Assembly (NCBI GenBank): GCA_018175075.1
Contig: GCA_018175075.1_4100.1
DNA from: a phage
DNA: 64,000 nt
Direction: 5' to 3' (one strand)
Part shown: one piece after another, positions 20,994 to 40,745 of the stretch
Layout: every line of letters begins with the position of its first letter
Position numbering within the stretch: the stretch's first letter is position 1
Program-made: the position numbers and the translations under genes
The notes under the pieces: model-generated
What the model saw: only the letters and a program-made list of their open reading frames with translations
The model's database searches: none
What the model was told of the DNA's origin: nothing

Positions 20994-21024
20994 CGTATTA
21001 TCTTTCTTTTTAATTAATGTTGAC

Positions 21025-23767: not shown

Positions 23768-23845
23768 AATTCCTCCTTTATTCATTATACTATATTTAAT
23801 ACAAATAAGAAAGCCAGTACAAAGTACTGGCATAGTTTTATAGTA
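23768..23845 (-). promoter_or_regulatory. RCC1-array cassette: hairpin + promoter + SD
   Basis: GCCAGTAC-TTT-GTACTGGC then TTAAATATAGTATAATGAATAAAGGAGG. Confidence 0.6.
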
Positions 23846-24955: not shown

Positions 24956-24965
24956 AAATTCCTCC

Positions 24966-25367
24966 TTAAATTTGTGGCAATTGGTATTCAGTTAAAGTCC
25001 ATGTACCAACAACTGTCCCTACTGGAGACATACCAGTGTAGTATAATTTCCCACTCACATATGCAAATAATGCATTGTCATTCGCAGCAACCAACGATGT
25101 TGACGGATCATAAACTACAGAATTTGGAAATTGTGCTTGGACGAAAATTGAAGCATTATTAGATGAATTGTTACCAAGCTGTCCATAATTATTATACCCT
25201 GTTCCAAAAATACGACTTCCATTTCTATATAATAATCCCCTAGGGTTTTGTGAATATGTTTGTATAAATTCAAAATCGGAAACATTAGTTAATTGTAAAT
25301 AAGTACTTTGTGGCGTTAAAGATATCTTATTAGTATTAGATAGAACACCATTTCCTAATTGTCCGTG
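24966..25367 (-). pseudogene. RCC1-like protein, displaced C-terminal 133 codons of the 25336..26145 gene
   Basis: stop-free frame, no usable ATG: HGQLGNGVLSNT...NNYGQLGNNSS...TLTEYQLPQI*. Confidence 0.65.
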
Positions 25368-26145: not shown

Positions 26146-26153
26146 ATTCCCTC

Positions 26154-27329
26154 CTATTCCGGTAAAATCATTTTCTTCATTTTAACTTGTTGTGTACCTG
26201 GACTCTGTTCCTGAAACATAGACCCGTTACCACACCAGTACACCTCATTAGTACCCACTAACGCGTATAACACACCAGAACCACCTTGTACTGAAAATGC
26301 ATTAACATCTGGTGCAACATCCATATCCTCATATTGTACCTGGTGGTAATAAGATCTTTCTGATGCAGTAGTAACAGGCCAACCAAGAGGAACACCACTA
26401 CCACATGTATAAAGTTTACCATTCTGTGTCATTGCCATTATAAAATAATTCAAACTGTGATTGTTCATCGACCCAGCATCTGGTATAATACCACTAATTG
26501 CAGGAGTGGTACTAAATGGACTCATGATAATAGTAGTGTCGCCATACCCTATTCCTAAACAATAATCAGTGTTTTTTCCAGCAGTATATACATTAATCTT
26601 ATTTCTATTGGATGTAAGTACTGAAGTGGTTTCAGGAGTACATGAAATACCAATAACTGTTCCAGATATATCAGTACTTACTGTAAATGTGGATAGTTTA
26701 GATGAACTTGAACCTAGGTTATAACTTGCATTATTACCACATCTGTAATATTGTCCATTTTTTACAAAATGGAAAGCACCACCCGACTGTGTTCCTGCGA
26801 TTAAAGTAACACCCGTGTTAATCAAAATAGGTGTTGATTTTATTCCAGTAACACCCAATTCACCCCCAGCATTACGGCCTATCCCATATAAGTTACCATC
26901 ACTTAACAGAATTAACAAAGAACCATTGGATGCGGTAGTTTCGGTAGAAGCTATATCTTGAACTGTAGTAAGGCTTGGAATTGTAGACAATATAGATGTA
27001 ATATTAGTCCATCCGGGAACAGGTGATGCAGATACACCGACATAGTTCATTTGCCCTGCTAAGTAAAATTCTCCGTCAGTCGTAAGTATAATTGTCCCTG
27101 CGAATAAACACCAAACATTAGAAACTTTATATGGACACTGTACCCACCCATTTTGTACATACTCCGTACTATTATTTCCTAGCCTATAATGTGCACCACT
27201 TCCACGTAGATATAAGTTACCACTATCAAATAACATACCCATATGTGATGACGATGTACTAATCTTTAATACACCAGAAGGTGCAGGTTTAATATTTCCA
27301 TACTTAACCATTCTTGCAAAAGGTAACAT
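26154..27329 (-). CDS. RCC1-like beta-propeller protein with MLPF leader
   Basis: start at MLPFARMVKYGNI; GAHYRLGNNS, RNAGGELGVTG. Confidence 0.8.
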   Translation of the reverse strand: MLPFARMVKYGNIKPAPSGVLKISTSSSHMGMLFDSGNLYLRGSGAHYRLGNNSTEYVQNGWVQCPYKVSNVWCLFAGTIILTTDGEFYLAGQMNYVGVSASPVPGWTNITSILSTIPSLTTVQDIASTETTASNGSLLILLSDGNLYGIGRNAGGELGVTGIKSTPILINTGVTLIAGTQSGGAFHFVKNGQYYRCGNNASYNLGSSSSKLSTFTVSTDISGTVIGISCTPETTSVLTSNRNKINVYTAGKNTDYCLGIGYGDTTIIMSPFSTTPAISGIIPDAGSMNNHSLNYFIMAMTQNGKLYTCGSGVPLGWPVTTASERSYYHQVQYEDMDVAPDVNAFSVQGGSGVLYALVGTNEVYWCGNGSMFQEQSPGTQQVKMKKMILPE

Positions 27330-27399
27330 ATTTCCTCCTTTATTCATTATACTATATTTAATCAAAAAGAAAAGCCAGTACTCTGTACTGGCCTATATT
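27330..27399 (-). promoter_or_regulatory. RCC1-array cassette: hairpin + promoter + SD
   Basis: same ~70-bp cassette. Confidence 0.6.
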
Positions 27400-28137
27400 T
27401 TAGACTGAATTGTTAGGATAATATCTCCCACGTCCCCATATTATTCGCACAGCACCACCACCAGCAGCCGTATAAGAAAAATTATCCCATATACTACCAC
27501 CACCACCATACATCTTACCAGCACCACCACTACCAGCACCACCATTATATGAACCATCGTATCTACCGCCAATACCATTAGCACCTTGAACAATGATACC
27601 AGTACCACCACCCGTACCAATGAACGAGGTATTATAGAATGCACCACCACCACCGCCGCCGCCAGCACCATTTTCACCAGTGATTGCATCTCCGTTACCA
27701 CCTTTACCAGTGTAGCCACCAGCACCACCACCAATGACTGCACCACCACTTACACCAGCGTTGCCCCCATTACCACCACCATCATTAATAGCGTTAGCAG
27801 CTTTCCCACCTAGTCCACCAACCCTATATTCACCAGTGAAGCTAACACATAGTTTTTCAGTTCCACGATATAAACCGTTTTCAACTGCTGTAGTAGTGTT
27901 GGGATGTGTAAGAGAAACACTTAAGTACTCACCACTAGTAACCGGAATATTATTACGCCACGATAAGCCGCCACCAGCACCACGTTGACCACCCGGCGAA
28001 ATAACACATACTGATATTTCGGTAACGCCAGCAGGAACTGTAAATTGTGTTGTTCCTATTGTCGTGATTAATTGTTCACCATGTGGCTTATATTCAATTT
28101 TATTCCCGTACTTAACCATTCTTCCAAAAGGTAACAT
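27400..28137 (-). CDS. glycine-rich (Gly_rich-type) protein with the same MLPF leader
   Basis: MLPFGRMVKYGN; FTVPAGVTEISVCVISPGGQRGAGGG then GGxGG tracts; no RCC1 motifs. Confidence 0.75.
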   Translation of the reverse strand: MLPFGRMVKYGNKIEYKPHGEQLITTIGTTQFTVPAGVTEISVCVISPGGQRGAGGGLSWRNNIPVTSGEYLSVSLTHPNTTTAVENGLYRGTEKLCVSFTGEYRVGGLGGKAANAINDGGGNGGNAGVSGGAVIGGGAGGYTGKGGNGDAITGENGAGGGGGGGAFYNTSFIGTGGGTGIIVQGANGIGGRYDGSYNGGAGSGGAGKMYGGGGSIWDNFSYTAAGGGAVRIIWGRGRYYPNNSV

Positions 28138-28210
28138 AATTCCCTCCTTTATTCATTATAATATATTTAATACAAAAAAGAAAAGCCAGTACTCTGTACT
28201 GGCTTTTACA
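28138..28210 (-). promoter_or_regulatory. RCC1-array cassette: hairpin + promoter + SD
   Basis: same ~70-bp cassette. Confidence 0.6.
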
Positions 28211-29401
28211 TTACAATTGTCTAGGTGTATCCAGTACATATCTATTTGTACGAGGACCACCATCATCATGCGTTCCGGTTGAATATATATTTTTCATATC
28301 AGCAGTTAGGAAAGTACGATACGAACCGCGATATATTTTAATTTTATCATACATAGAATATGTTATTCCTGACGGCAATGGACATGCAGTAAATTTACCA
28401 ATGGTAACATTAGAACCAACACCTAATGTACCAGCATAACCACTCGCATTTAAACCAGTTGCATATACACCTGTACTCGTAACTAGTATACTAGATTGTG
28501 ATGCATATCCAGTATGGATTGAATAATAAGTTCCTGATGGTAATGTAGTACTATTATTCCCTAATACTGCTAGTGCTGTACTATTCGTAGTGTTATTACC
28601 CCATGCCCCATTATTAGCTAATCCACCAACTAGAAACTGACGTGCTCCTGTATTTGGATTCTCCACTAAAGCACTGACAGCACCAAATGAACAAACAGTA
28701 TATTGTAATGTTTTTGTATATGTGGTACTTGGCTTATACAAAGTATATTCATTAAATGGTGTCCATGTGGTACTAGTACTTATGCCAGATGTACTACCAC
28801 CAATATATAAATTATTTTGTGTATCAAAAAACATTGCACAGTAATTTGTTGACTGTATTTGTGCAATATCTACATCTGGTGTTACCGCTTTAACAAATGA
28901 ACCATCTGATATTTGATAAGTAGTTCCTGTACCATCTGCGAATTGTCTAGCACTATTCCACCCTGTACTCCATATTGTATTATTATCCATTAAGAAAGTA
29001 AACCACGTAGTACCTGCATACATCTGTTTAATTGAAGTACTTGAACTTTGTGTGTACAAATTTTCAATATATTGGTTATAACTTAAAAATGATGTAGTAC
29101 TAGTTTCTAAACCAATATGACTACCATATCCACAATAAAAATAATTTAAGTCATTATCTTGTACTAACAAAGTTCCTTGTGTCATCCAGCAATCTTTGAC
29201 ATTTTCTCTAATTAATGTCCACGACCTTACTGCATTATTATTTCCTCTACCAAACTTCCCATAACTATTACTGCCTCGTGCGTATAGTTGACCGTCGGTA
29301 TAAAGTACAACAACCTCAGTATCAGTTGGTATTATTTTCTTAATTTGTAGTGGTACAGGCACAATATTCCCATAATTCATCATTCTTGCAAAAGGTAACA
29401 T
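28211..29401 (-). CDS. RCC1-like beta-propeller protein with MLPF leader
   Basis: MLPFARMMNYGNI; SNSYGKFGRGNN, GYAGTLGVGS. Confidence 0.8.
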   Translation of the reverse strand: MLPFARMMNYGNIVPVPLQIKKIIPTDTEVVVLYTDGQLYARGSNSYGKFGRGNNNAVRSWTLIRENVKDCWMTQGTLLVQDNDLNYFYCGYGSHIGLETSTTSFLSYNQYIENLYTQSSSTSIKQMYAGTTWFTFLMDNNTIWSTGWNSARQFADGTGTTYQISDGSFVKAVTPDVDIAQIQSTNYCAMFFDTQNNLYIGGSTSGISTSTTWTPFNEYTLYKPSTTYTKTLQYTVCSFGAVSALVENPNTGARQFLVGGLANNGAWGNNTTNSTALAVLGNNSTTLPSGTYYSIHTGYASQSSILVTSTGVYATGLNASGYAGTLGVGSNVTIGKFTACPLPSGITYSMYDKIKIYRGSYRTFLTADMKNIYSTGTHDDGGPRTNRYVLDTPRQL

Positions 29402-29472
29402 AATTCCCCTCCTTATTCATTATACTATATTTAATACAAATAAGAAAGCCAGTATCAAGTACTGGCCTATAT
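29402..29472 (-). promoter_or_regulatory. RCC1-array cassette: hairpin + promoter + SD
   Basis: same ~70-bp cassette. Confidence 0.6.
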
Positions 29473-30642
29473 TTAAACTGGCGAATCTAATATAAATTCT
29501 AAACTACTAATGCCACCATATGTGACATCTGTTCCCGTGCTATATACAAAATTACCATCAGTTATATAAGTTCGGTTATAACTACCTGCCATCTGTGACT
29601 TACTATAATCAAACCCATCAGGTACGATTGCTTTGGTATATACTAATGCATTAGTAGATGTACCAATACCTAACATACCAGCTTGTGTAGATTGATTGTA
29701 GCCGCAACAATATATACCATCTGTTGTAGCAATAACTTGGTTATAATATGAAGTATTGTTAGCAATGCTTACTACATCACCAGGTGGCATTAGTGATGCT
29801 GTTTGTACCTCAAATGCTCTATAATCTTTGAGAGAACCATCTTTCCCATCTGCTTGTGCACCAAATATTCTTGAACCACCATTTGCGATGATAGTTTTAC
29901 CAGTGGGATCAGTGCCTATTGCCATTGCCATTGAAGTACCATTATTCACATAGTACTTTATATTAATTGTATTACTTAAGCTGGTAGGAGCACCATAATA
30001 TATATTATATAACTTACTTCCTGAACTTGTAACTGCATTGACTCTTCCTGTATAAAATAACCATCCTTGGTTTGTAACATAACCGTGCATTAAATTACTT
30101 GCAAACAATTTAACAGGTAATTGATTTGCTGCGGTAGGAACAGTACTTTTGACGAATCTACCAGAAACATGGTTAATTGTTGTCCCATCACCCAACTGAC
30201 CATCCGACCCTACTCCAGTACTCCATATTGTTTGGTCTGATAGTAACACACTTGTAGTCTGATAACTAACGGCTATATCTAATATTGGTAATGTTAATGT
30301 ATTGAATATAGGCATAGCAGATGTCCATATTGATACTCCTGACCCTTTCATACCAACAGTTGTTGAACTTCCACTGTACCATATTTCATTATTGCTTTTC
30401 TTAACAACTATCGACGTGGCACCCATCCAAAAATCTTCAACACCAGAAGTACTAAAAGTCCATGTAGTAACAGTATTTTTGTGACCTAAACCCAAAATAC
30501 CATATGCATTATCACCACGCACATATAAATCACCACTGTTTGTTAAAACAGCAACATTATAGTTGTTAGCAAGTATTTTTTTAATATTTGGTTTATCAGG
30601 TGCAATATTCCCGTACTTAAACATCCTCGCAAAAGGTAACAT
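29473..30642 (-). CDS. RCC1-like beta-propeller protein with MLPF leader
   Basis: MLPFARMFKYGNI; DNAYGILGLGH, GSDGQLGDGT, TQAGMLGIGT. Confidence 0.8.
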   Translation of the reverse strand: MLPFARMFKYGNIAPDKPNIKKILANNYNVAVLTNSGDLYVRGDNAYGILGLGHKNTVTTWTFSTSGVEDFWMGATSIVVKKSNNEIWYSGSSTTVGMKGSGVSIWTSAMPIFNTLTLPILDIAVSYQTTSVLLSDQTIWSTGVGSDGQLGDGTTINHVSGRFVKSTVPTAANQLPVKLFASNLMHGYVTNQGWLFYTGRVNAVTSSGSKLYNIYYGAPTSLSNTINIKYYVNNGTSMAMAIGTDPTGKTIIANGGSRIFGAQADGKDGSLKDYRAFEVQTASLMPPGDVVSIANNTSYYNQVIATTDGIYCCGYNQSTQAGMLGIGTSTNALVYTKAIVPDGFDYSKSQMAGSYNRTYITDGNFVYSTGTDVTYGGISSLEFILDSPV

Positions 30643-30711
30643 ATTTCCTCCTTATTCATTATACTATATTTAATACAAATAAGAATGCCAGTATCAAGTA
30701 CTGGCATTATG
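30643..30711 (-). promoter_or_regulatory. RCC1-array cassette: hairpin + promoter + SD
   Basis: same ~70-bp cassette. Confidence 0.6.
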
Positions 30712-31821
30712 TTATTTTGGTAAATCAATTTTAGTAAAGACTGCAACATCTGCACTTGCACCTGGAATGGCGTAATACGATCCAGTACTATATACATTCC
30801 CGTCTTTGGTTAATAATGATGTTAATCCGTCACTAAAAGCAACATCACTAATCTCACTAACTTCTACAGGTAATTGTAAATTAGCAGCACTATAGATAGC
30901 ACCCGTTTGAGAATTGTTTAATCCCAAACCACGGTTTCCCCCAATACCTTTCTGATATGCACTAGTTAATATAATTTGCGTAGCCGTGCTTGTTGCCTCT
31001 GAATTTGTCATAAACAAAGGTGAATTATTAGGTAAAGTACTTACAGGAACTGCTTTGAATGTAGTTGAATCTGAACTAAGAAAGTTTGGAGTTGTACCAC
31101 ATGTGAAATATGATGTACCATTATAGTAATTGAGTGTATGTCCACCAATAGCTGCATCTATTACACCAGAACTACGCAGTCCCCAAATGTTAACTTGTGT
31201 TCTGTTCCCTGTGCCATGTAATCCACGGTCATTCCACCCTGAACTATATAACTTATTATCTATGCTAATATACATACTATCATTAGGAGTAGACATAACT
31301 TTACGCACATTAGAAGCACATAGTGTTAATGTATATATTGATGAAGAACCAATCCCCAATACACCACGGTATCCATTAGCCCCAGCACCATAGAGTACTG
31401 AACTTGAACTTAGTACAAATATTACACCACTATTGCATACAATATTAGCAATTTGATTCACTGGTATTGTATTTGTAAACCACTCGGTTCTATCAACTAA
31501 TGTAGTACTGTAAGAAGTAGTTGTAGAAGATGTGAACCAGTACGTTTGACCTGATGTCCATATCGTATTATCATTTTTAATAATAACAAGTGTTCGTCCT
31601 CCAGTGAAAAAATTAGAAACATCTGCACTTACTAATATCCATGAAGATACCGTGTTGGTATTACCATTTCCAGATTCACCACCTTGATTTCTGCCTATGT
31701 AATACAATTCATGTGAATCAGTCAATACGAATTGACCTTGAGTAGAAGCACCAACTTTAATTATATTTTTAGGACCAGAGGTAATATTCCCATAATCAAA
31801 TAGTCTTACAAAAGGTAACAT
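30712..31821 (-). CDS. RCC1-like beta-propeller protein with MLPF leader
   Basis: start at MLPFVRLFDYGNI behind GGAGGG; RNQGGESGNGNT, NGYRGVLGIGS. Confidence 0.8.
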   Translation of the reverse strand: MLPFVRLFDYGNITSGPKNIIKVGASTQGQFVLTDSHELYYIGRNQGGESGNGNTNTVSSWILVSADVSNFFTGGRTLVIIKNDNTIWTSGQTYWFTSSTTTSYSTTLVDRTEWFTNTIPVNQIANIVCNSGVIFVLSSSSVLYGAGANGYRGVLGIGSSSIYTLTLCASNVRKVMSTPNDSMYISIDNKLYSSGWNDRGLHGTGNRTQVNIWGLRSSGVIDAAIGGHTLNYYNGTSYFTCGTTPNFLSSDSTTFKAVPVSTLPNNSPLFMTNSEATSTATQIILTSAYQKGIGGNRGLGLNNSQTGAIYSAANLQLPVEVSEISDVAFSDGLTSLLTKDGNVYSTGSYYAIPGASADVAVFTKIDLPK

Positions 31822-31829
31822 ATTCCCTC

Positions 31830-33032
31830 CTATTGTTGCCATAACTGCGTTGGCATTAATGTTAGTGTAGTAATACTATAAGTGCCATCAGGCAATCTAC
31901 CACCATTACCATTCCAGCCACCACATGCATATAATTTATAATCTTTAGTAATTATTATGGTTCTGCTCCAATCTTTAGATGCCATAAGAACATTGTCATA
32001 ACCACCACTTATTGCACTAAGATTAAAAATAGCCCAAGTCTTAACTAATGTATTAGTTCCATTACCTTCTTGACCATATGAGTTAGGACCACTACTTCTA
32101 ACATATGGTGCGTATTGTGCCATAGGTGAACCAATTGATGCATTTCCCATATTACTTGGACAAATAAAATTACTGTACTTACTTACATCAACCGTGACCG
32201 ATGTATTCCTAATTGGTGTTAGCTGATTTACTGATGTAGTCGTACCATTACCAGCTTGTCCAGTATTGTTAGACCCACTATAATATACAGGCCCACCAGT
32301 AGTAAACCACCAAGTAACATTGTATGTAGTACTAATATGTTCTACATTACTAATCACGAATTTGTTCAAATATACAACAGAACTACCACCACATCCACTT
32401 TCACCAAAGTTATCCTTACCACAAAACCATGCATCTTTATTTGATTTAATATAGTGCGTTCCTTGTAATGAACATGCCATATCTATAACTTCACCCATAT
32501 TAGTCATAACTGTTAGTGTAGGGATTGAATTTTGATTACCCGACCCACATTCACCATTAGTATTTTTTCCACACGCAATTACTCTACCATCTGTTAATAA
32601 TATTCTAGTACTTTCACCTATATATACACTCTTGATCATATTAGCCATTACGCCAATTTTATTAAATGAAGCAGTAACATCAGTCCATGTTCTCAAATAA
32701 CCACTAACAGGTGTTGCATCTCCATAATCAGAAAATGCACCCACCGACCCAGTGTAGTATATTTTATTATCCAAATCAACCATCAATGAACCATGAACAC
32801 CCAGCCAATAGGCTGCACAGTTACGTGCAAGTACAGTAAATGACGGAACTGCTGCTGAATTCCCAAGACCAAATTGAGACATGTTATTACTACCATAACC
32901 ATATAAAGTATTAGTTGGGCTATGTAGATACATACAGTTTGTATAATGTTGTTGTAAAACATCTGAGAACTCTATAGGTTCTGGCCCTGGTGCAATATTA
33001 CCGTACTTAACCATTCTAGCAAAAGGTAACAT
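31830..33032 (-). CDS. RCC1-like beta-propeller protein with MLPF leader
   Basis: MLPFARMVKYGNI; NNMSQFGLGN, NNTGQAGNGT, NSYGQEGNGT. Confidence 0.8.
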   Translation of the reverse strand: MLPFARMVKYGNIAPGPEPIEFSDVLQQHYTNCMYLHSPTNTLYGYGSNNMSQFGLGNSAAVPSFTVLARNCAAYWLGVHGSLMVDLDNKIYYTGSVGAFSDYGDATPVSGYLRTWTDVTASFNKIGVMANMIKSVYIGESTRILLTDGRVIACGKNTNGECGSGNQNSIPTLTVMTNMGEVIDMACSLQGTHYIKSNKDAWFCGKDNFGESGCGGSSVVYLNKFVISNVEHISTTYNVTWWFTTGGPVYYSGSNNTGQAGNGTTTSVNQLTPIRNTSVTVDVSKYSNFICPSNMGNASIGSPMAQYAPYVRSSGPNSYGQEGNGTNTLVKTWAIFNLSAISGGYDNVLMASKDWSRTIIITKDYKLYACGGWNGNGGRLPDGTYSITTLTLMPTQLWQQ

Positions 33033-33104
33033 ATTTCCCTCCTTTATTCATTATATTATATTTAATCAAAAATAAAAGCCAGTACTTGAGTACTGGCATA
33101 TCAA
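33033..33104 (-). promoter_or_regulatory. RCC1-array cassette: hairpin + promoter + SD
   Basis: same ~70-bp cassette. Confidence 0.6.
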
Positions 33105-34271
33105 TTACGAAAAACGTGGATCATCAAGAACAAACACGGTACTACTTGGACCACCTTGTGTGGTGACAGCACTAGTACTGTAAAGAAAGTTACCATCTGT
33201 CATATAAGTTCTACGATTCGTACAAATAACTCTTACTTTATTCATATCGATATCAGGATTAGGTAATGGACATGAAGTATACACTGATACATCAGTACTT
33301 GTTCCTATTCCCAGCGTACCTTCATTTGTGGTTGAACCGCTATTCAACCCACTAGCATATATACCACTGCTTGTAATAACAAAAGTGGCGTAGAATGGAG
33401 AACCTTCACCTATATTTAATTTAGTTCCAGGTGGTTGTCTTGCCGCAGCAACCGCACCATATGCTTTCCCACCAGATGTGGCAAGATTACCAAGAGCACC
33501 ATACTGTTGTTGTCCACCATTATACACTGTGTTAGTGCCATCACTGTTAGTGTGGATACCAATAGAATTATAGTTACTGTTGCTATATACTAAAGCGGCA
33601 TTAGAAGTAACTGTATTTCGTGTATATACTTTATATTGTTGGGTAAAATTACCACTAGTGGACGTACCCTGTACAGTTCCAGTGTAGTATATATATCCGT
33701 CTGTACCAATGAATGAGTGCATAACACTACCTGCAAAAATTTTTTCTGGAGTAACACCTGACGGTATTGTTGATTGTACAAATCTACCCACTACATTTGT
33801 TGTTGTATTATTTCCCAATTGACCGGAGTCACCATAACCACTTGACCATATGGTATTGTTCTCAAGAAGAACACTAATTGATAATCTTGATAAAGCTATT
33901 TCTTTAACATCACTTTCTAATGTATCAAAAAATGAAGTACAATTTGTCCAAGTGTTCACTACGCTAGAACTAACACCAATTTGTTTATTATCACCAGAAC
34001 TATAATAATTCCCATCATATGTTTGTATAAGTATAACAGAACCACCAACCCATACTTTATCAACTGAACCAAACGTTCTTGTCCATGTGGTAACTATATC
34101 CCCGCTATTATTACCCAATCCAAAGCAACCACTACTATCTACGCCTCGTACATATAAATCTCCTGAAGTCATCAGAACTGCACAGAATGATTGTGCACCT
34201 TTAACATCTTTAATTGGCTCTGGTTCAGGTGCAACATTTCCATAATCAAACATTCTAACAAAAGGTAACAT
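33105..34271 (-). CDS. RCC1-like beta-propeller protein with MLPF leader
   Basis: start at MLPFVRMFDYGNV; DSSGCFGLGNN, GDSGQLGNNT, NEGTLGIGT. Confidence 0.8.
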   Translation of the reverse strand: MLPFVRMFDYGNVAPEPEPIKDVKGAQSFCAVLMTSGDLYVRGVDSSGCFGLGNNSGDIVTTWTRTFGSVDKVWVGGSVILIQTYDGNYYSSGDNKQIGVSSSVVNTWTNCTSFFDTLESDVKEIALSRLSISVLLENNTIWSSGYGDSGQLGNNTTTNVVGRFVQSTIPSGVTPEKIFAGSVMHSFIGTDGYIYYTGTVQGTSTSGNFTQQYKVYTRNTVTSNAALVYSNSNYNSIGIHTNSDGTNTVYNGGQQQYGALGNLATSGGKAYGAVAAARQPPGTKLNIGEGSPFYATFVITSSGIYASGLNSGSTTNEGTLGIGTSTDVSVYTSCPLPNPDIDMNKVRVICTNRRTYMTDGNFLYSTSAVTTQGGPSSTVFVLDDPRFS

Positions 34272-34319
34272 ATTTCCTCCTTTATTCATTATATCATATT
34301 TACCCCATAAACAAAACCC

Positions 34320-34348
34320 TTGACAACCTTCCAGTACTGGTGTACTAT
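34320..34348 (+). promoter_or_regulatory. sigma70-type promoter of the small-gene array (divergent from RCC1 array)
   Basis: TTGACA-N17-TACTAT, CAGTACTGG in the spacer. Confidence 0.55.
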
Positions 34349-34373
34349 AGAAGGAATATAAGGAGAACTACAC

Positions 34374-34601
34374 ATGACAAATACTCTTAAGTACTACATT
34401 AATACTCTAAATGAACTAGAGTACGCGAAGTTTCTCGCGGATAGTTCGTGGCTAATTGAGCTAAAAAATTATAATAGTCCAGGATGCACCCTTATGATGA
34501 ACAATGCAATTGATACCCTCATTGTGAGTATTTTACACAGCAACATCTGCGGGGATAGAAACAAACAATTATCAAAAATCTTAGTACTGCTATCTATATG
34601 A
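34374..34601 (+). CDS. small protein, YY/LIYRY tandem family
   Basis: 75 aa; AAGGAG SD after the 34320 promoter; MTNTLKYYINTL... Confidence 0.6.
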   Translation: MTNTLKYYINTLNELEYAKFLADSSWLIELKNYNSPGCTLMMNNAIDTLIVSILHSNICGDRNKQLSKILVLLSI

Positions 34602-34801
34602 ATATCGAACAGTACTACATCGATGCACTACCAACAAAAGGTCTACGTGAAAGCCTACTGCATACACAAACTAATTTCAAACACCTCAAACGTAGCCCTA
34701 AACTCCTGAACTCGTACAGGAATAATAACATAAGAAATGCTTTACAAGGGGTAGAATGTATGCAATACTATTACATCCTTACCCTATTAATCGAGTACTA
34801 A
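34598..34801 (+). CDS. small protein, YY/LIYRY tandem family
   Basis: MNIEQYYIDALP...LTLLIEY; ATGA coupling. Confidence 0.6.
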   Translation: MNIEQYYIDALPTKGLRESLLHTQTNFKHLKRSPKLLNSYRNNNIRNALQGVECMQYYYILTLLIEY

Positions 34802-34802
34802 T

Positions 34803-35012
34803 ATGAATACTGAACATAAAGAATTCTACACCAAATACCTTAGCAACGAAGAACAATTGTTTCTAAGGAGTGTATCACCTGTAAGTACCAATACTCAATT
34901 CGGTAGAGATTGCTTTAATAATTGTATACGTAGTACTCTAGAAGCAATCGAATGCAATAACAAAAATATTATGTACTCAGGTTTAATAGGACTAATATAT
35001 TTCTATGAATAA
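34803..35012 (+). CDS. small protein, YY/LIYRY tandem family
   Basis: MNTEHKEFYTKYL...GLIYFYE; close paralog of 38188. Confidence 0.65.
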   Translation: MNTEHKEFYTKYLSNEEQLFLRSVSPVSTNTQFGRDCFNNCIRSTLEAIECNNKNIMYSGLIGLIYFYE

Positions 35013-35199
35013 TCATAAAGATTTCTATTGTAGTAAACTACCCAAACAAGAACAGCTATCATTCTCTTTAGCACCACCTATGAGAAAGGATAATCTGTAT
35101 TATAATTACGATTTCAGGATGGTGACACGTTATGCAATAGAACATCAGTTCCCTGAAACTAAGTACCGCTCTATCCTGAACCTCATCTTTAAGTTCTAA
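35005..35199 (+). CDS. small protein, YY/LIYRY tandem family
   Basis: MNNHKDFYCSKLP...; paralog of 38390. Confidence 0.6.
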   Translation: MNNHKDFYCSKLPKQEQLSFSLAPPMRKDNLYYNYDFRMVTRYAIEHQFPETKYRSILNLIFKF

Positions 35200-35251
35200 A
35201 AGGTACACCAGGGACCGAGTACTTTAATATAGTAAGGCTAATTACATTATA

Positions 35252-35437
35252 ATGAATCATATAAGCTACTACTACCAACAACTATCCGACAGAGACAAGT
35301 ACAGTCACAACTCCCATGTGTGGTACTACAAACGCGGCAGTATAAGAGACAAACAACATTACTTCTGTATTTCTATTAAAGAAGCACTGACAACTAAGTA
35401 CACGTACCGAGCAGTACTTAAACTTATTGAAATGTAA
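35252..35437 (+). CDS. small protein, YY/LIYRY family (VLKLI subgroup)
   Basis: MNHISYYYQQLSD...YRAVLKLIEM. Confidence 0.6.
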   Translation: MNHISYYYQQLSDRDKYSHNSHVWYYKRGSIRDKQHYFCISIKEALTTKYTYRAVLKLIEM

Positions 35438-35447
35438 AGAGAATACT

Positions 35448-35630
35448 ATGAACATTGAATTGTACTTAAGTAAATTACAGCCTGGCGATAGATTCATCTA
35501 CAATAAGTTCGAATTCAACTACAAGAACGGGAGCAACAAATATCGTCGAGGATACCTATATACAAGCACAAGAGATGCACAAAACGAAAAGTACACATAC
35601 AGAGAAGTACTTAAACTAATCTCTATTTGA
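35448..35630 (+). CDS. small protein, YY/LIYRY family (VLKLI subgroup)
   Basis: MNIELYLSKLQP...EKYTYREVLKLISI. Confidence 0.6.
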   Translation: MNIELYLSKLQPGDRFIYNKFEFNYKNGSNKYRRGYLYTSTRDAQNEKYTYREVLKLISI

Positions 35631-35638
35631 GGTAATAT

Positions 35639-35824
35639 ATGAATACATTTGAGTACTATACCAATAAACTATCTATGCCTGAAAGATCTCATCTCTATGT
35701 GTGGAGAAATGCGTATAAAAGCGGCAATAAACTTATACAAAGAAATTCCCTTACAGTGTGTACAAATTTAATTAAAGCAGAGTACCGCACATATATTGAA
35801 GTACTGAAACTAATCTCTATCTAA
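35639..35824 (+). CDS. small protein, YY/LIYRY family (VLKLI subgroup)
   Basis: MNTFEYYTNKLS...YIEVLKLISI; GAGG SD. Confidence 0.6.
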   Translation: MNTFEYYTNKLSMPERSHLYVWRNAYKSGNKLIQRNSLTVCTNLIKAEYRTYIEVLKLISI

Positions 35825-35832
35825 GGTACTCT

Positions 35833-36012
35833 ATGCAAGAATTCTATATCTATAAACTTCAGCACAAAGATAGATACAACTATAATAAATTCCAAAGGTA
35901 CTACACAGTCGGGAACAAAAGAGATAAAAAACGATACTTTCTATCATGTACAGTAGAAGCACAAAACGAAAAGTACACGTACAGAGAAGTACTGAAACTC
36001 ATCTCTATGTAA
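35833..36012 (+). CDS. small protein, YY/LIYRY family (VLKLI subgroup)
   Basis: 59 aa, below track cutoff: MQEFYIYKLQ...EKYTYREVLKLISM; AAGG SD. Confidence 0.55.
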   Translation: MQEFYIYKLQHKDRYNYNKFQRYYTVGNKRDKKRYFLSCTVEAQNEKYTYREVLKLISM

Positions 36013-36020
36013 GGAATAAT

Positions 36021-36200
36021 ATGCAAGAATACTATATAGAACACATAAGCATTAAAGACCGTTTCATGTACGACACCTTCGTGAAGTACTACAACCTGGC
36101 AACTAACAGTACTAAAAATATTAATCTCAATAGCTGCATTCATCACGCACTAACAAAAGATAATCCCTTCAGGGAAATCCTCGCACTAGCATCTGTATAA
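36021..36200 (+). CDS. small protein, YY/LIYRY family (VLKLI subgroup)
   Basis: MQEYYIEHISIK...FREILALASV; AAGGA SD. Confidence 0.6.
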   Translation: MQEYYIEHISIKDRFMYDTFVKYYNLATNSTKNINLNSCIHHALTKDNPFREILALASV

Positions 36201-36210
36201 AGGAAACCAA

Positions 36211-36870
36211 ATGAAACTTAATGCACACAGCAAACAATACCTTAAGCACTTTAAGTACCTCAACAGTATTCAAGCAGAATCTTTTACACCAGCATATACG
36301 TATCACCCAAATGTACTAAAGAAACGAAATAAAAAGAAAAAATCCAGAAATGTTCTCGTATCTAAGAACCTCAAATCGTACTTGAAGAAAAATAATATAG
36401 CTCTTGCTTTTATTAATATCTATAATACTGATTTAAAAGTATTGAGTACTAATACCAGCACAAAAGCACTAAAGAATGCATCTATCTATATACACATGGA
36501 TAATATCCCGTGCACTATAATTCTATCTTTCGGGAATGTATACTTCTTCGGGAATTGTAATAGCACCCATGATATCAGTACTGCACAATTCCAAATCGGC
36601 GATATGTACTGCATGGGTTCAGAAAAAATACACGATAACATGCACTTCTTCCAAAAGCAACGTACTAACGAAACTGATACAGTACTGCAATTCCTCAAAG
36701 AACTAGAACACAAAGAATTATCCGAGGAAGAAGAATTCATGTACAGTACTGTAATCGATAATCCAGAACTCTATAAAAACGCGTACAAACTAACAAAACA
36801 TGTACAGGAACTTATCAGTACTGATAAGAAATTTCATCACCTCATTACGTATATTTCAAACTATGTATAA
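36211..36870 (+). CDS. hypothetical protein, basic N-terminus (interrupts the small-gene array)
   Basis: 219 aa; AAGGA SD. Confidence 0.6.
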   Translation: MKLNAHSKQYLKHFKYLNSIQAESFTPAYTYHPNVLKKRNKKKKSRNVLVSKNLKSYLKKNNIALAFINIYNTDLKVLSTNTSTKALKNASIYIHMDNIPCTIILSFGNVYFFGNCNSTHDISTAQFQIGDMYCMGSEKIHDNMHFFQKQRTNETDTVLQFLKELEHKELSEEEEFMYSTVIDNPELYKNAYKLTKHVQELISTDKKFHHLITYISNYV

Positions 36871-37045
36871 AGAATACTACAAAGATAAAATCCCAATGCA
36901 TCTACAACACCATATACCAAACGTTGCATTGGGTATCAAAGATCACGCAAAGATAATGTTCCAACAATGTACTAAGTACACGCTCATATACGATGATAAT
37001 CCATATATGCTGTACTACGTAGTAATGCTAACATTCAGGTACTAA
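36863..37045 (+). CDS. small protein, YY/LIYRY tandem family
   Basis: MYKEYYKDKIPMHL...VVMLTFRY. Confidence 0.6.
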   Translation: MYKEYYKDKIPMHLQHHIPNVALGIKDHAKIMFQQCTKYTLIYDDNPYMLYYVVMLTFRY

Positions 37046-37046
37046 T

Positions 37047-37226
37047 ATGAATACTTATAAAGAATTCTACCTCTCGTACCTTAATTCCGATATAGTAACA
37101 TCCAATACATTCAGTACTAAAATTATCTATAATGAATTAATGAAAGAATGTATTAAAGGTGCTATTAACCCTAAAGATACGTATGACTTGTACTATGCAG
37201 TACTAACCCTTGTTTTCACGAAATAA
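37047..37226 (+). CDS. small protein, YY/LIYRY tandem family
   Basis: 59 aa, below track cutoff: MNTYKEFYLSYL...AVLTLVFTK. Confidence 0.55.
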   Translation: MNTYKEFYLSYLNSDIVTSNTFSTKIIYNELMKECIKGAINPKDTYDLYYAVLTLVFTK

Positions 37227-37234
37227 CACATAAT

Positions 37235-37426
37235 ATGAATAACCACAAAGAATACTACATAGAGAAACTCCCAATGTATCTCCAACACCTTGTACCAACA
37301 GAACCATTGGGTATAGAAAAAAACTACGAAAAAGACTACTTCATTCAGTGCACTAAATCCTCGATATATATTGAAGACTATAATCGAGTACTGTATCACA
37401 TCCTTTTACTAATATATAGGTACTAA
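37235..37426 (+). CDS. small protein, YY/LIYRY tandem family
   Basis: MNNHKEYYIEKLPMYL...ILLLIYRY. Confidence 0.65.
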   Translation: MNNHKEYYIEKLPMYLQHLVPTEPLGIEKNYEKDYFIQCTKSSIYIEDYNRVLYHILLLIYRY

Positions 37427-37427
37427 T

Positions 37428-37610
37428 ATGCACAAAGAATACTACACACAATTTCTCCCCAGCATTTTTGAACACTACGCCAGATACAAAGTCCCTATGG
37501 ATAACGATTTGGCAGTACTGGGATTCAATAACTGCATAGAACGAAGTATAGAAAATAGTAGTAGTTATGACCAGCTATATAACACTATCCTACTTATATT
37601 CAGGTACTAA
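37428..37610 (+). CDS. small protein, YY/LIYRY tandem family
   Basis: MHKEYYTQFLP...TILLIFRY; AGGTACTAATATG junction. Confidence 0.65.
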   Translation: MHKEYYTQFLPSIFEHYARYKVPMDNDLAVLGFNNCIERSIENSSSYDQLYNTILLIFRY

Positions 37611-37611
37611 T

Positions 37612-37800
37612 ATGCATAAAGAATACTACACAAAATATTTCCCAATGTACCTCAGTACTAATCTATTAGATAAACCTCGCGGTATCAATGCACAAAACGA
37701 TAAAGTGTATTTTACTATGTGTACTAAAGCATGTATACTAGATTTTGACAGCTACCATCGAGTACTGTATCATACCCTGTACCTAGCTTTCGTATTCTAA
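37612..37800 (+). CDS. small protein, YY/LIYRY tandem family
   Basis: MHKEYYTKYFPMYL...; same junction. Confidence 0.65.
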   Translation: MHKEYYTKYFPMYLSTNLLDKPRGINAQNDKVYFTMCTKACILDFDSYHRVLYHTLYLAFVF

Positions 37801-37809
37801 AAGAACAAT

Positions 37810-37995
37810 ATGCATAAAGAATTCTACTTAAGCCATCTCGATCTAAACTCCCAAATGCTTATACCACTAATCCCAATAGATATCAAGGATAAGAAAAATA
37901 CCGAACAATTCATTTACCATACACAGTGTGCGATCACCCCAAATTACATTCCATATGAATTGTACTACATTATCGCCCTAATATATAGGTACTAA
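37810..37995 (+). CDS. small protein, YY/LIYRY tandem family
   Basis: MHKEFYLSHL...IIALIYRY. Confidence 0.65.
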   Translation: MHKEFYLSHLDLNSQMLIPLIPIDIKDKKNTEQFIYHTQCAITPNYIPYELYYIIALIYRY

Positions 37996-37996
37996 T

Positions 37997-38182
37997 ATGC
38001 ATAGAGAATACTACACACAATTTGTTAAAGGGAACTACAAACATGCCGTACCCAGAACCCCTTTAAATTCTCATGACCCAAGTACTATATTCTTGTTTAA
38101 TGACGCAATACGTACAGTACTCAATACTAAAGATGAAGATGTGCAGTACGTATTCTTACTATTACTTATATACAGACACTAA
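37997..38182 (+). CDS. small protein, YY/LIYRY tandem family
   Basis: MHREYYTQFV...FLLLLIYRH. Confidence 0.65.
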   Translation: MHREYYTQFVKGNYKHAVPRTPLNSHDPSTIFLFNDAIRTVLNTKDEDVQYVFLLLLIYRH

Positions 38183-38187
38183 CTAAT

Positions 38188-38397
38188 ATGAATAAAGAAC
38201 ATAAAGAATTCTACTCCAAATACATAAGCCCCTCAGAACAAATGTTTCTAAGAACTACTCCACCTTTAAGTACTAATACATTTTTCGGCAGAGTATGCTA
38301 CAATAATTGTATTCAAATGACTTTAAACGCAAACGAAGATGGTAACAGTACTAACCTGTACTCAGGTATCATAGGTATACTATTCCTGTATGAATAA
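38188..38397 (+). CDS. small protein, YY/LIYRY tandem family
   Basis: MNKEHKEFYSKYI...GILFLYE; paralog of 34803. Confidence 0.65.
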   Translation: MNKEHKEFYSKYISPSEQMFLRTTPPLSTNTFFGRVCYNNCIQMTLNANEDGNSTNLYSGIIGILFLYE

Positions 38398-38581
38398 TTA
38401 CAAAGACTTCTATTTGAATACACTACCTACTGTACTTTCTCTAAGTGCTCAATGTAAAATCCCGCTGGATAATGCTTACGCCAGATATAGCTATTCCATA
38501 ACTGTTAATCGATGTATAGAGAATCATTGCAGTACTAACACTAGTACTATCATATTAATTAATAGAGAATACTATGTATAA
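38390..38581 (+). CDS. small protein, YY/LIYRY tandem family
   Basis: MNNYKDFYLNTLP... Confidence 0.6.
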   Translation: MNNYKDFYLNTLPTVLSLSAQCKIPLDNAYARYSYSITVNRCIENHCSTNTSTIILINREYYV

Positions 38582-38765
38582 AAACTTCTATATAAGTAAA
38601 CTAAAAGAAAATGAACAAGTATGGATTAGATCTATAATTCCACTGGCATTTAATAGATATGCATTTAACAGATGTACCGAGATTGCTATAGACCCTTATA
38701 ATATTAAAGAGAATGTACAGTATAATCAGTACTACTATATCTTAATGCTTATATATAGAAAGTAA
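38574..38765 (+). CDS. small protein, YY/LIYRY tandem family
   Basis: MYKNFYISKLKE...YILMLIYRK; last gene of the array. Confidence 0.6.
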   Translation: MYKNFYISKLKENEQVWIRSIIPLAFNRYAFNRCTEIAIDPYNIKENVQYNQYYYILMLIYRK

Positions 38766-38782
38766 TTAAACACATAGAGACA

Positions 38783-38872
38783 GGGGAAGCTCCTAGTGAA
38801 CAACCTTTATGTACAGGCGAATTGTTAAAATTCAGCCTGGACAAATGCGATCACTAGGATTCTCCCCAGGCT
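38783..38872 (+). other. long-range inverted repeat / structured element after the small-gene array
   Basis: GGGGA..TCCTAGTGA (38783-99) pairs with TCACTAGGA..TCCCC (38851-67); AGCCTGG/CCAGGCT alternative stem. Confidence 0.4.
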
Positions 38873-39403
38873 AAACCCCGTAATCATAGGTAGTCATAAG
38901 TAATCATATATAAACATTTATATGAGCACCGTAGAATCACAGAATGATTATATATGATTCAGTACTGATTAGTATAGACAAGATTGCTCAAGAATGCACG
39001 GAAATGTGTGTGAATGATTCAGTACTGATATCCCACTAAGTAGGCAGAGGAAGTCTGCCGTACTTTGTAGTTTCCAAGCTCCTTTTCCATTTTGCAAATT
39101 ACATCAAATGTAATCAAAAGTAATCACACAATGATTAGTACTGAATTATTACTTTCACCTTAATTACAATTACCCTTTTACCCTTCGGGGTAAAATTCCA
39201 TTACCCCTTGAGGCTCCAGCAAAAAGTTGGTTAGTACTCCATCCTAAATCTCGATCCTAAAAATTTTGGAGTACCTATGAAATAAAAGTTGGATCTTCGA
39301 AAGTTGAAATTTACGTTGGGACGTTTATGATTTGTGGGATATAATGATGTTTGTAGTCGGGTAGTTCTCAAGAATATCAGTACTGAATGATGAAAGAAAG
39401 CTA

Positions 39404-39431
39404 TTGACTTTATGATTCAGTACTGTATAAT
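39404..39431 (+). promoter_or_regulatory. orphan promoter in the ORF-free hub
   Basis: TTGACT-N16-TGTATAAT-GTTTTACAT, same class as the mini-gene promoters. Confidence 0.55.
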
Positions 39432-39437
39432 GTTTTA

Positions 39438-39550
39438 CATAGAGAGATGAGTTGCCGCAAACAATTCATTCACTCTACTTCCTGTCGTGAGACAGTACAG
39501 AAAGATAGTTCCTCCTATGGGTGGTACATCTTTTAGAACCTCTTTTTTCG
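39438..39550 (+). ncRNA. candidate non-coding transcript (or 29-aa peptide mRNA, ORF 39447..39536)
   Basis: runs from the orphan promoter to T6 at 39543-48; contains CTGTC-GTGA-GACAG hairpin. Confidence 0.3.
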
Positions 39551-39819
39551 TAATATGAACAGTACTGATATTAACAGAATGGTGTCAGTACTGATTTTAA
39601 TTTAATGCATTATGCCACCAGCACAAGCTGGTGGATTCCCTCTAACAGTATTCAGTACTACATGATGGTCTTCATCCTCCTAGGGTAACATAGTGAGGGC
39701 TATGATGGCAGTACTGAATACTCCCTTTCAAAAGATAGATCTATGGTATAGTACTGACGGATTTTGGGCGTAGTTACCCTGGATGGATTTTGGGCGTAGA
39801 TATGTCTAGCCCTCCAGAA

Positions 39820-39950
39820 GTCTGGAAGTAAAGATGGCTATCCATCTAGACGGCTAAACGGCTAGATTTCTGGATGGCTGGATGGCTAGACGTTTGGACG
39901 GCTAAACGGCTAGATGGTTACACGTCTGGAAGTATAGACGGCTAAATCAA
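39820..39950 (+). repeat. iteron-like direct repeats
   Basis: GACGGCTAAACGGCTAGAT x2 (39849, 39897) + GACGGCTAAAT (39938); GGATGGCT x3; GTCTGGAAGTA x2; A/T tract follows. Confidence 0.6.
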
Positions 39951-40094
39951 AATTTTATTTTGTTTTTTCCAATAGTTCCCCTACCGCGTGGGGATAGTTT
40001 CCCCGCAGTATCTGGTGTTAGATTTTTCTGAATCTGGAATCATTATCTTATAAACTGGGGGCAATGTCAACGGCCTGGACGGATATTTTTAAAA

Positions 40095-40195
40095 ATTTTT
40101 TCAGTACTGAATTTTGGGCGTAACTATGCACCCGGTGGGCTGGAGTCTTTCTCGACTTGATGGAACTATTATACAGTACTGGAAAAATAAAGCAA
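40095..40195 (-). ncRNA. GGGTGC-core promoter-proximal RNA element, copy 1 (with promoter)
   Basis: TTGCTT-N16-TATAAT then ..GUCGAGAAAGAC..AGCCCACCGGGUGC..UACGCCCAAAAU. Confidence 0.35.
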
Positions 40196-40319
40196 TACCC
40201 TGGATGAAAAAAGTTTTAATTAATTTGCTTGCCATCCTGGGCCGGACTATGGTACTATAATTCAGTACTGAGAAAGTGCGTTAACCTGCTAGGGTGCGGG
40301 AGTGTATCCTTTTTTTATA

Positions 40320-40410
40320 TCTTGAATTTTGGGCGTAATTCCGCACCCTCTGGGGTTTCCGCTTTCTCGCGTCTATGTAGTAATTATACGCTTTTTCAGG
40401 ATCAAGTCAA
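40320..40410 (-). ncRNA. GGGTGC-core RNA element, copy 2 (with promoter)
   Basis: TTGACT-N16-TATAAT then ..CGCGAGAAAGCG..CCCCAGAGGGUGC..UACGCCCAAAAU. Confidence 0.35.
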
Positions 40411-40561
40411 TACCTAAAAACAAATAATTGAAAATAATTTAACGCGTTTAAACGGCCCGTAACGCCCTGGAATGATTAGAATGGTGCAAATGTATAGCTT
40501 AGGTGTATTAATGCGTTAGAATGCGTCTGAGGCCGTTTTATGGGGTGTAGTAGTGATTTGG

Positions 40562-40654
40562 TTGATTCAGTACTGAATAATAGTACTCCTATATAGAAAG
40601 ATAGTTCCCCTGGATTGATTCAGTACTGAATAATAGTACTCCTATATAGAAAGA
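40562..40654 (+). repeat. tandem direct repeat, period 53 bp
   Basis: TTGATTCAGTACTGAATAATAGTACTCCTATATAGAAAGA at 40562 and 40615. Confidence 0.7.
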
Positions 40655-40685
40655 AAACTATTTTAAAAGTACATGTAGAAAGTAC

Positions 40686-40745
40686 TTGCACCGTACTGAT
40701 AAAAGCGTATAATGTTTTACATCGAGAGCGGGAACACTTCCCGCT
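40686..40745 (+). promoter_or_regulatory. mini-gene promoter + 5'UTR hairpin unit
   Basis: AGTACTTGCAC..TATAATGTTTTACATC + AGCGGGAA-CAC-TTCCCGCT. Confidence 0.6.

Follow-up and report, generated by a model that had tools for sequence, protein, structure and literature searches.

The stretch of phage DNA analyzed here (GenBank assembly GCA_018175075.1, contig GCA_018175075.1_4100.1; 64,000 nucleotides (nt), referred to as the window) carries on its + strand, at positions 34374–38765, an unbroken run of open reading frames (ORFs) that comprises 19 mini-genes of 59–75 amino acids (aa) and one gene of 219 aa. The mini-ORFs are protein-coding genes under purifying, fairly relaxed selection and encode a compact helical domain. 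Sequence comparisons indicate that they constitute a multigene family shaped by birth-and-death evolution. We propose, with a probability of roughly 45%, that their products are a panel of small non-virion binders or inhibitors that act in host takeover or counter-defence and that are retained through this mode of evolution.

A nucleotide search with positions 34300–38800 matched 34 phage records at 92–99% identity. All of them are Escherichia or Salmonella jumbo phages of approximately 350 kb that belong to the genus Asteriusvirus, including PBECO4, 121Q, slurp01, phAPEC6, SP27 and JP4. By this match, the source of the window is an Asteriusvirus jumbo coliphage of the PBECO4/121Q group. Every gene under the match is annotated as 'hypothetical protein' in all 34 records.

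Family membership, coding status and fold

The first-pass annotation of the window, made from the sequence alone, had described a dense tandem family of nineteen tiny + strand paralogs at 34374–38765, and the computed comparisons bear out such a family of 19 ORFs. When the genes, numbered g01 to g20 in array order, were compared all against all with phmmer, two clusters emerged, A (g03, g04, g11 and g13–g20) and B (g05–g09), while g01, g02 and g12 stayed unlinked at this level. A profile of cluster A recovered g12 with E=1e-7 among the 583 six-frame ORFs of the window and produced no false matches; subfamily A, with g12 included, comprises 12 ORFs and subfamily B five. The links between the subgroups were assessed by profile–profile comparison with hhalign, using alignments deepened with database homologues and column-shuffled controls. 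Subfamilies A and B aligned over 55 colinear columns with a score of 28.3 (P=1.6e-5), compared to 5.7–14.7 for 30 column-shuffled controls and 9.9 for the reversed profile. Against A, the g02 orthologues scored 28.5 (P=1.8e-5; control maximum 13.4), g12 scored 81.5 (P=8e-18; control maximum 15.0) and g01 scored 19.6 (P=0.0019; control maximum 12.0), which makes the membership of g01 marginal. A computed alignment could have split the family into unrelated sequences, but the subgroups proved to be linked. Because these links exceed their shuffled controls, the claim of nineteen paralogs stands statistically, with the caveats that g01 is a marginal member and that g19 is damaged. A naive iterative search with a hidden Markov model (HMM) over 10 loci had also joined all subgroups, but it took in an off-frame fragment, a sign of profile drift, and was replaced by the controlled profile–profile tests.

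Part of the family is already catalogued as phrog_11711, a cluster without functional annotation that is also assigned to the relatives. It captures 12 of the 19 array proteins at E<=0.01 (best 6e-28), and at this threshold g01, g02 and the subfamily B members g05–g09 have no match.

For the analysis of selection, each gene was compared with its orthologue from eight or nine related phages by the Nei–Gojobori method. The ratio of nonsynonymous to synonymous substitution rates (dN/dS) was 0.37 in the annotated frame, compared to 1.1 and 1.3 in the other two frames of the same alignments, and substitutions at codon positions 1, 2 and 3 numbered 277, 230 and 444, respectively. The lengths and the order of the ORFs are kept across the genus. 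This contrast between frames, the codon-position bias, the conserved lengths and order, and confident AlphaFold2 models together lead to the conclusion that the mini-ORFs encode proteins.

Structure prediction, which had been suggested as a check in the first-pass annotation, was carried out by running AlphaFold2 with family-only alignments and returned confident models for both main subfamilies. The subfamily A protein g13 was modelled with a predicted local distance difference test score (pLDDT) of 91.6 and a predicted template modelling score of 0.76, with helices at residues 4–9, 14–17, 30–45 and 49–62. The subfamily B protein g08 reached a pLDDT of 93.2, with helices at residues 2–7, 11–26, 29–43 and 49–58, and the order of the helices is identical in both models. 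Thus, both subfamilies are predicted with high confidence to fold as a compact four-helix unit. In this predicted fold, a short N-terminal helix carrying HKE(F/Y)Y is followed by a variable second element and by a long helix that packs on a hydrophobic C-terminal helix.

Column entropies identify the N-terminal H-K-E-(F/Y)-Y motif as conserved, with Y8 invariant in 56 sequences, together with L12, Q17 and P24-L25. One face of helix 3 is likewise conserved (F36, C39, T/I40 and I/L44), as is the hydrophobic C-terminal helix (Y/L53, I56, L57, L59, I60 and Y/F61), while most remaining positions are highly variable between paralogs. The M(N/H)KE(Y/F)Y N-terminus and the hydrophobic C-terminus noticed in the first reading are indeed among the most conserved columns, together with a central F-x-x-C-(T/I), and the subgroup said to end differently corresponds to subfamily B, which ends in ...YREVLKLISI. 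The mini-proteins are rich in tyrosine (11.2%, compared to 5.6% in the long ORFs of the window), and their isoelectric points (pI) range from 5.3 to 9.6, subfamily B being mostly basic. Two other interpretations of the conserved termini were rejected. The hydrophobic run at the C-terminus extends over only about 10–13 residues and is modelled as the last helix of the compact unit, which argues against a membrane anchor; and the N-terminal motif is confined, within the window, to array members, which argues against a general tag on other proteins.

The array begins with its most divergent and marginal member, g01 (34374–34601, 75 aa), whose orthologues are nonetheless conserved with a dN/dS of 0.38, followed by the divergent g02 (34598–34801, 67 aa), the start of which overlaps the g01 stop (ATGA). 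Two subfamily A genes come next, g03 (34803–35012, 69 aa; a phrog_11711 match with g18 as closest paralog) and g04 (35005–35199, 64 aa). The subfamily B block consists of g05 (35252–35437, 61 aa; basic, pI 9.4), which is preceded by the only long spacer of the array (52 nt), g06 (35448–35630, 60 aa), g07 (35639–35824, 61 aa; the first non-A match of the A profile, E=0.002), g08 (35833–36012, 59 aa; its 3' end is a recombination junction) and g09 (36021–36200, 59 aa). After the 219-aa gene g10 (36211–36870), which is embedded in the operon, the array continues on the same strand with subfamily A: g11 (36863–37045, 60 aa), which shares its first 8 nt with the end of g10, the divergent g12 (37047–37226, 59 aa), g13 (37235–37426, 63 aa; used for the structure model), g14 (37428–37610, 60 aa), g15 (37612–37800, 62 aa), g16 (37810–37995, 61 aa), g17 (37997–38182, 61 aa), g18 (38188–38397, 69 aa; the paralog of g03), g19 (38390–38581, 63 aa), which combines a subfamily A N-terminus with an out-of-frame C-terminus, and the last gene, g20 (38574–38765, 63 aa). 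Four starts were moved to internal ATGs that restore the family N-terminus, namely g06 to 35448 (preferred over the TTG at 35427), g09 to 36021, g11 to 36863 and g15 to 37612. The two members earlier said to fall below a 60-aa cutoff, at 35833 and 37047, are both 59 aa long, as is the one at 36021.

That g10 is unrelated to the mini-genes, as first noted, is borne out by sequence comparison, which found no relationship to the family; the possibility that its C-terminus is a fused family member was rejected, since the profile match was not significant. Its position within the array is the same in every relative examined, and it is annotated as phrog_29152 in SHEFM2K, but it has no match in Pfam or the PDB. 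With 39% aa identity to its counterpart in phage JNE01, g10 diverges as fast as the mini-genes.

Divergence, copy-number change and distribution

The paralogs within the array are strongly diverged, with a median pairwise identity of 24% at the aa and 53% at the nt level and 59% and 73%, respectively, for the best pair (g03/g18), while orthologues keep their order at 80–100% identity across most phages of the genus. Since the paralogs have diverged while the orthologues hold their positions, the expansion is ancient and has diversified, and the array predates the radiation of the genus Asteriusvirus. The block nevertheless diverges far faster than its surroundings: between the window and JNE01, flanking genes are 82–98% identical in aa sequence, whereas the best matches of array members reach only 25–59%. 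Thus, the locus is hypervariable relative to its flanks.

The architecture of the array differs among 10 phages, with approximately 14–22 mini-genes per phage and between 2 and 6–7 copies of subfamily B. Approximate counts are 22 in BF17, 21 in SHEFM2K and JP4, 18 in TH47, 16 in 121Q, 15 in SD-15_S21 and JNE01, and 14 in UE-S1, compared to 19 in the window. Compared with JP4, two genes have been lost from the window, and both deletion junctions were mapped. The first loss is a 204-bp deletion between two copies of the 10-bp sequence CAGTACTAAC that removed the neighbouring gene; after this deletion the C-terminus of g19 reads ...STIILINREYYV, whereas the intact orthologue P0019 ends in ...QYYNIILLIFRY. 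Probably, g19 is defective and 18 of the 19 mini-genes are intact. In the second loss, neighbouring B-type genes recombined at their conserved 3' ends, so that one B-type gene of JP4 is absent after g08. Copy number hence changes between phages through unequal recombination, which takes place both at the conserved ends of genes and at short microhomologies. Exchange between paralogs is also visible in the database paralog P0005, a chimera of a g13 N-terminus and a g15 C-terminus, and in the duplication of two-gene units, with g03–g04 matching g18–g19 and, at a distance of about 380 nt, g06 matching g08. Diverged paralogs, positional orthologues, gains and losses, chimeras and a divergence faster than that of the flanks are the observations on which the birth-and-death reading is based.

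The first-pass annotation had compared the array to the adaptive gene accordions of poxviruses, in which one gene is amplified recently for dosage and the copies are then free to collapse. The variation in copy number between related phages and the deletions at microhomologies and homologous gene ends fit such a mechanism, as in the amplification of tifA in phage T4, and the array shares with the K3L and dmd–tifA accordions a tandem small gene whose copy number changes at short microhomologies (bioRxiv 10.1101/2022.04.14.488369). However, accordion copies are near-identical, recent, dosage-driven and unstable, whereas the array copies are only about 24% identical, no pair exceeds the values given above for g03/g18, and positional orthologues exist throughout the genus, which is the signature of diversified genes and not of dosage copies. 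The recombination mechanics are therefore the same, but the time-scale and the outcome, here diversification, differ. What remains of the comparison is a slow copy-number change by unequal recombination; a strict accordion is largely refuted by the paralog divergence and must be considered very improbable.

A second evolutionary alternative is that the mini-genes are largely dispensable duplicates, which persist by weak constraint and recombination dynamics. The fairly relaxed dN/dS would be compatible with this, and members are readily lost between phages, with one being damaged in the window. On the other hand, frames, lengths and core residues are kept across the genus, the off-frame controls reveal real constraint, and the promoter and the tight coupling of the genes described below are conserved. 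We thus regard dispensability as unlikely.

Databases were also searched with family profiles, as had been suggested as a check. The clusters of the family among 5.8 billion proteins amount to 71 and 29, and HMMER, run exhaustively against 1.84 billion representative proteins, retrieved 28 matches, all of 41–69 aa; the most divergent representative that could be traced, P0120, originates from phage JNE01. Within a phage collection, the records with subfamily A and those with subfamily B are the same 36, all of them Asteriusvirus. Across these 1.84 billion representatives, the family is confined to the genus. No mini-protein matched Pfam, PADLOC returned two single-member matches that are not meaningful (both E>0.002), the best hit in a sequence-based PDB profile search had E>=0.44, and Foldseek searches of the viral models in BFVD retrieved family members only; by these four resources, there is no similarity to characterized anti-defence, defence or other families. 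The Asteriusvirus genome papers that were searched do not describe the mini-gene family. The neighbouring array of RCC1-like genes and the growth of jumbo-phage genomes by tandem duplication were described previously (PMC7247149). By our analysis, the mini-genes are a lineage-specific multigene family with an uncharacterized fold.

Probable operon organization and genomic neighbourhood

A putative sigma-70-type promoter (TTGACA-17-TACTAT) is located at 34320–34348 on the + strand, with the palindrome CAGTACTG in its spacer and a strong Shine–Dalgarno (SD) sequence, TAAGGAG, between it and g01. Its -35 element, spacing and -10 element are preserved in each of the ten aligned loci from related phages and metagenomes, including the most divergent phage, JNE01, and the 84 bp that separate g01 from the first RCC1-like gene show almost no variation in any relative, JNE01 again included. 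The promoter call relies on this conservation and not on a consensus scan, since scanning the window was not discriminating (28 promoter-like sites versus 33 expected in shuffled sequence). It is therefore plausible, as first suggested, that this one promoter drives the array. The composite TTGAC-N7-12-CAGTACTG, followed by a TATAAT-like -10 element, occurs at nine sites in the window versus 0 expected, from which we infer a phage-typical class of promoters.

The 8-bp palindrome itself is present in 64 copies in the 64 kb, versus about 1 expected and a maximum of 4 in 100 shuffles (examples are at 13898, 34332, 39418, 42182, 51154, 57193 and 59171). Many copies lie in the spacers of sigma-70-like promoters, and ORFs contain many others. 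The palindrome may serve as a promoter element specific to the phage, or as a site for a regulator or for modification.

At 18 of the 19 junctions, stop and start codons are separated by -8 to +10 nt, the exception being the 52 nt between g04 and g05. Gene ends double as SD sequences at several junctions. The sequence AGGTACTAAtATG (AGG-TAC-TAA-t-ATG), where the codons for Arg-Tyr-stop provide an AGGT SD 7 nt ahead of the next ATG, is found at g11/g12, g13/g14, g14/g15 and g16/g17, and the close variant GAGTACTAAtATG (GAG-TAC-TAA-t-ATG) at g02/g03; the initial statement that many junctions follow this pattern hence applies exactly to only four, plus one variant. At B-type junctions, T(A/G)AGG(T/A), the stop codon itself overlaps the SD. 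The best-conserved repeats at the DNA level are centred on gene junctions. The conserved promoter and the tight spacing of the junctions indicate that the array forms one operon with coupled translation.

A strongly structured RNA-like element follows the last stop codon immediately, at 38783–38870 on the + strand (minimum free energy -39.7 kcal/mol, z=-4.2). The core of the element, GTTAAAATTCAGCCTGGACAAATGCGATCACTAGGATTC, is identical in all aligned relatives, JNE01 included; the alignment showed no covariation, and the element has no Rfam match. It may belong to the operon, either as its 3' end or as a processing element.

Beyond the array, the window contains an ORF-free gap of about 1.9 kb (38766–40700), which is followed by many small + strand ORFs, and a comparable stretch separates the array from the next conserved gene in relatives. 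Its first 300 nt show 69–94% nt identity where they can be aligned. The gap harbours 12 copies of CAGTACTG, a near-consensus promoter at 39404–39431, hairpins with T-runs at 39560–39593 and 40291–40310, and a 53-bp direct repeat at 40568/40621. A search of the gap for remnants or pseudogenes of the family found none, nor was there an Rfam match; the gap may be a small-RNA locus. In related loci (L010, L011 and L013), two 79-aa DUF7249 (PF23907) paralogs recur among the small genes downstream of the gap, for example at 12645–12884 and 14686–14925 in L013.

Upstream of the mini-genes, the - strand contains 12 paralogous ORFs of 245–411 aa, most of about 400 aa, at 20097–34289. Five of those scanned against Pfam matched RCC1-like beta-propeller domains, and one ORF of 245 aa gave no match. 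The RCC1-like array and the mini-gene array diverge from the conserved 84-bp region in all relatives, the metagenomic ones included, and two metagenomic contigs contain, in this order, the RCC1-like array, the mini-gene array with an embedded gene of about 220 aa and an ORF-poor gap. RCC1-like paralogs also differ in presence or absence between phages; the one at 31830–33032 is 92–94% identical in some phages, and its best match in 121Q is only 30% identical.

This arrangement raises the possibility that the mini-proteins are partners of the RCC1-like proteins, acting as chaperones, adaptors or regulators, and that the two arrays co-evolve. In favor of such a partnership, the divergent arrangement is constant, phages differ in both arrays, the RCC1-like ORFs and the subfamily A genes of the window each number 12, and several RCC1-like paralogs are virion proteins. 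However, RCC1-like genes exist without the mini-gene family in Erwinia, Klebsiella and Salmonella Munch-like phages, in GAP32 and in coliphages of about 140 kb, and the mini-proteins themselves are missing from the proteins detected in virions. Nor do the two arrays diverge together, because the RCC1-like gene adjacent to the array is 93.5% identical between the window and JNE01, compared to the 25–59% of the mini-genes. Covariation of copy number was not established either, as tblastn placements do not resolve diverged tandem paralogs. A role as RCC1 partners is therefore quite unlikely.

Several observations concern the more distant surroundings. At 16972–19411 on the + strand, seven back-to-back ORFs of 104–141 aa with abutting or overlapping ends may form another tandem paralog family, and a promoter-like site of the CAGTACTG type lies ahead of them at 16914–16942. 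In JP4, the gene at 90611–91252, which is syntenic with window positions 11183–11857, is annotated as 'protein kinase; inhibitor of host transcription', and HNH and homing endonucleases as well as endonuclease V are annotated alongside it, upstream. The homing endonuclease of JP4 at 97396–98514 may be absent from the window.

Possible functions and significance

The interpretation of the array as a panel of small binders draws on its host-type promoter, the small size of the products, surfaces that vary around a conserved core, the hypervariability of the locus and its restriction to one genus. According to this model, host RNA polymerase would transcribe the array as one polycistronic mRNA, probably early in infection, and translation would be coupled from gene to gene, with the last codons or the stop of one gene forming the SD of the next. 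The products would act as intracellular proteins outside of the virion, the variable surface of each member would bind a different host or competitor protein, and birth-and-death evolution would keep the panel diverse.

Information on the location of the products comes from the virion proteome of phAPEC6, which lists 62 proteins, among them the RCC1-like gp007, gp009, gp549 and gp551 (PMC7247149). This list lacks the array proteins (gp542c, gp545c and neighbours) altogether, even though the adjacent gp549 and gp551 are, and the same mass spectrometry did detect a protein of 4.7 kDa (PMC7247149). Because a protein of this size was caught while the array proteins were absent, the products are probably non-structural. 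The inhibitor or decoy library put forward in the first-pass annotation would be in keeping with this absence, with the hypervariable locus and with the variation of surface positions around a constant core, although no homology points to it.

Several points weigh against the binder panel. Virion proteomics can miss small proteins. The early timing is deduced solely from the sigma-70-like promoter, and no transcriptome was found. A dN/dS of 0.37 between orthologues reflects purifying or relaxed selection and not positive selection. In addition, the polar N-terminal motif (H4, K5, E6 and Y8) suggests a shared partner or a targeting signal, and a different target for each member does not by itself explain a family in which this motif is conserved.

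A targeting signal would be expected if the mini-proteins were capsid-targeted internal proteins, i.e., proteins that are packaged in the head and injected together with the DNA as a first line of counter-defence, like IPI* of phage T4. As in IPI, IPII and IPIII of T4, for which an anti-restriction role is proposed, the array encodes small proteins with divergent bodies and a conserved N-terminal motif resembling a decapeptide, in a polymorphic locus. Polymorphism is likewise a feature of the internal-protein loci of T-even phages. In the mini-proteins, conservation across the family is strongest at the N-terminus, g12 starts with MNTYKEFYLS compared to MKTYQEFIAE in the T4 capsid-targeting sequence, and some members are basic (pI 9.4–9.6). 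A prohead protease of the T4 type and an inner body are likewise present in the phage (PMC7247149). Yet the resemblance to the targeting sequence, which was recognized post hoc, amounts to only about 5 of 8 residues and does not extend into any homology outside this short motif, and no consistent L/I-x-E cleavage site follows the motif in the sequences. Moreover, the N-terminal helix is modelled inside the confidently predicted unit (pLDDT 82–94), the motif occurs in the window only on array members and not on unrelated proteins, and no array protein was found among the 62 virion proteins, a list from which small proteins can be missing. Taken together, an internal-protein function appears highly unlikely.

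The basic character of subfamily B and of several A members (pI 9.2–9.6, net charge +3 to +7) and the twofold enrichment of tyrosine could alternatively point to small nucleic-acid-binding or regulatory proteins that modulate transcription or translation of phage or host genes. A comparable expansion is known from Bacillus phage G, a jumbo phage with a lineage-specific set of about 35 small zinc-ribbon paralogs, for which a role as transcription factors or DNA-binding proteins was proposed (PMC7824862). About half of the array members are neutral or acidic, however, and Pfam shows no helix-turn-helix, zinc-binding or other DNA-binding signature, so that nucleic-acid binding likewise seems rather improbable.

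A more specific version of the binder panel, which we consider possible but doubtful, describes the array as a natural binder library. One helical scaffold of about 60 aa would carry the N-terminal 'handle' HKE[F/Y]Y and hypervariable faces, each of which would neutralize a different defence or takeover target, and recombination between paralogs would reshuffle the repertoire through chimeras, unit duplications and deletions. The shared handle might couple the members to one common partner or delivery route. If this holds true, phages would possess, in the binder library, an equivalent of the multigene families with which large eukaryotic DNA viruses evade immunity.

Among these viruses, the multigene families (MGFs) 100, 110, 360 and 505 of African swine fever virus (ASFV) resemble the array, as do other jumbo-phage expansions: all consist of diverged tandem paralogs whose copy number and content vary between isolates, and all form a variable block beside conserved genes that changes by duplication, loss and recombination. 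In contrast to the ASFV MGFs and the zinc ribbons of phage G, the array proteins are only about 60 aa long, have a fold without detectable relatives and appear to be produced from one translationally coupled operon. For some of the ASFV families, but not for the array, a function in host interaction is documented. A further parallel is the host-takeover module of Bacillus phage SPO1 (gp37–60), which comprises many small early genes with host-type promoters, most of them of unknown function. The array is likewise a cluster of many small genes behind a host-type promoter, but the SPO1 genes are mostly unrelated to each other, whereas the array is one fold amplified about 20-fold.

The locus thus combines about 20 copies of a tiny, confidently folded and genus-restricted protein in the fastest-evolving block of the region, within genomes that consist mostly of genes of unknown function. 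In other large DNA viruses, such a pattern marks genes at the host–virus interface. Whatever its role, the family has so far been annotated as 'hypothetical protein' only. Should its members turn out to have no measurable effect, the locus illustrates the growth of jumbo-phage genomes through tandem duplication. If instead they prove to be defence inhibitors or takeover factors, the array would offer many new small effectors on a single scaffold and an example of natural repertoire diversification in a phage.

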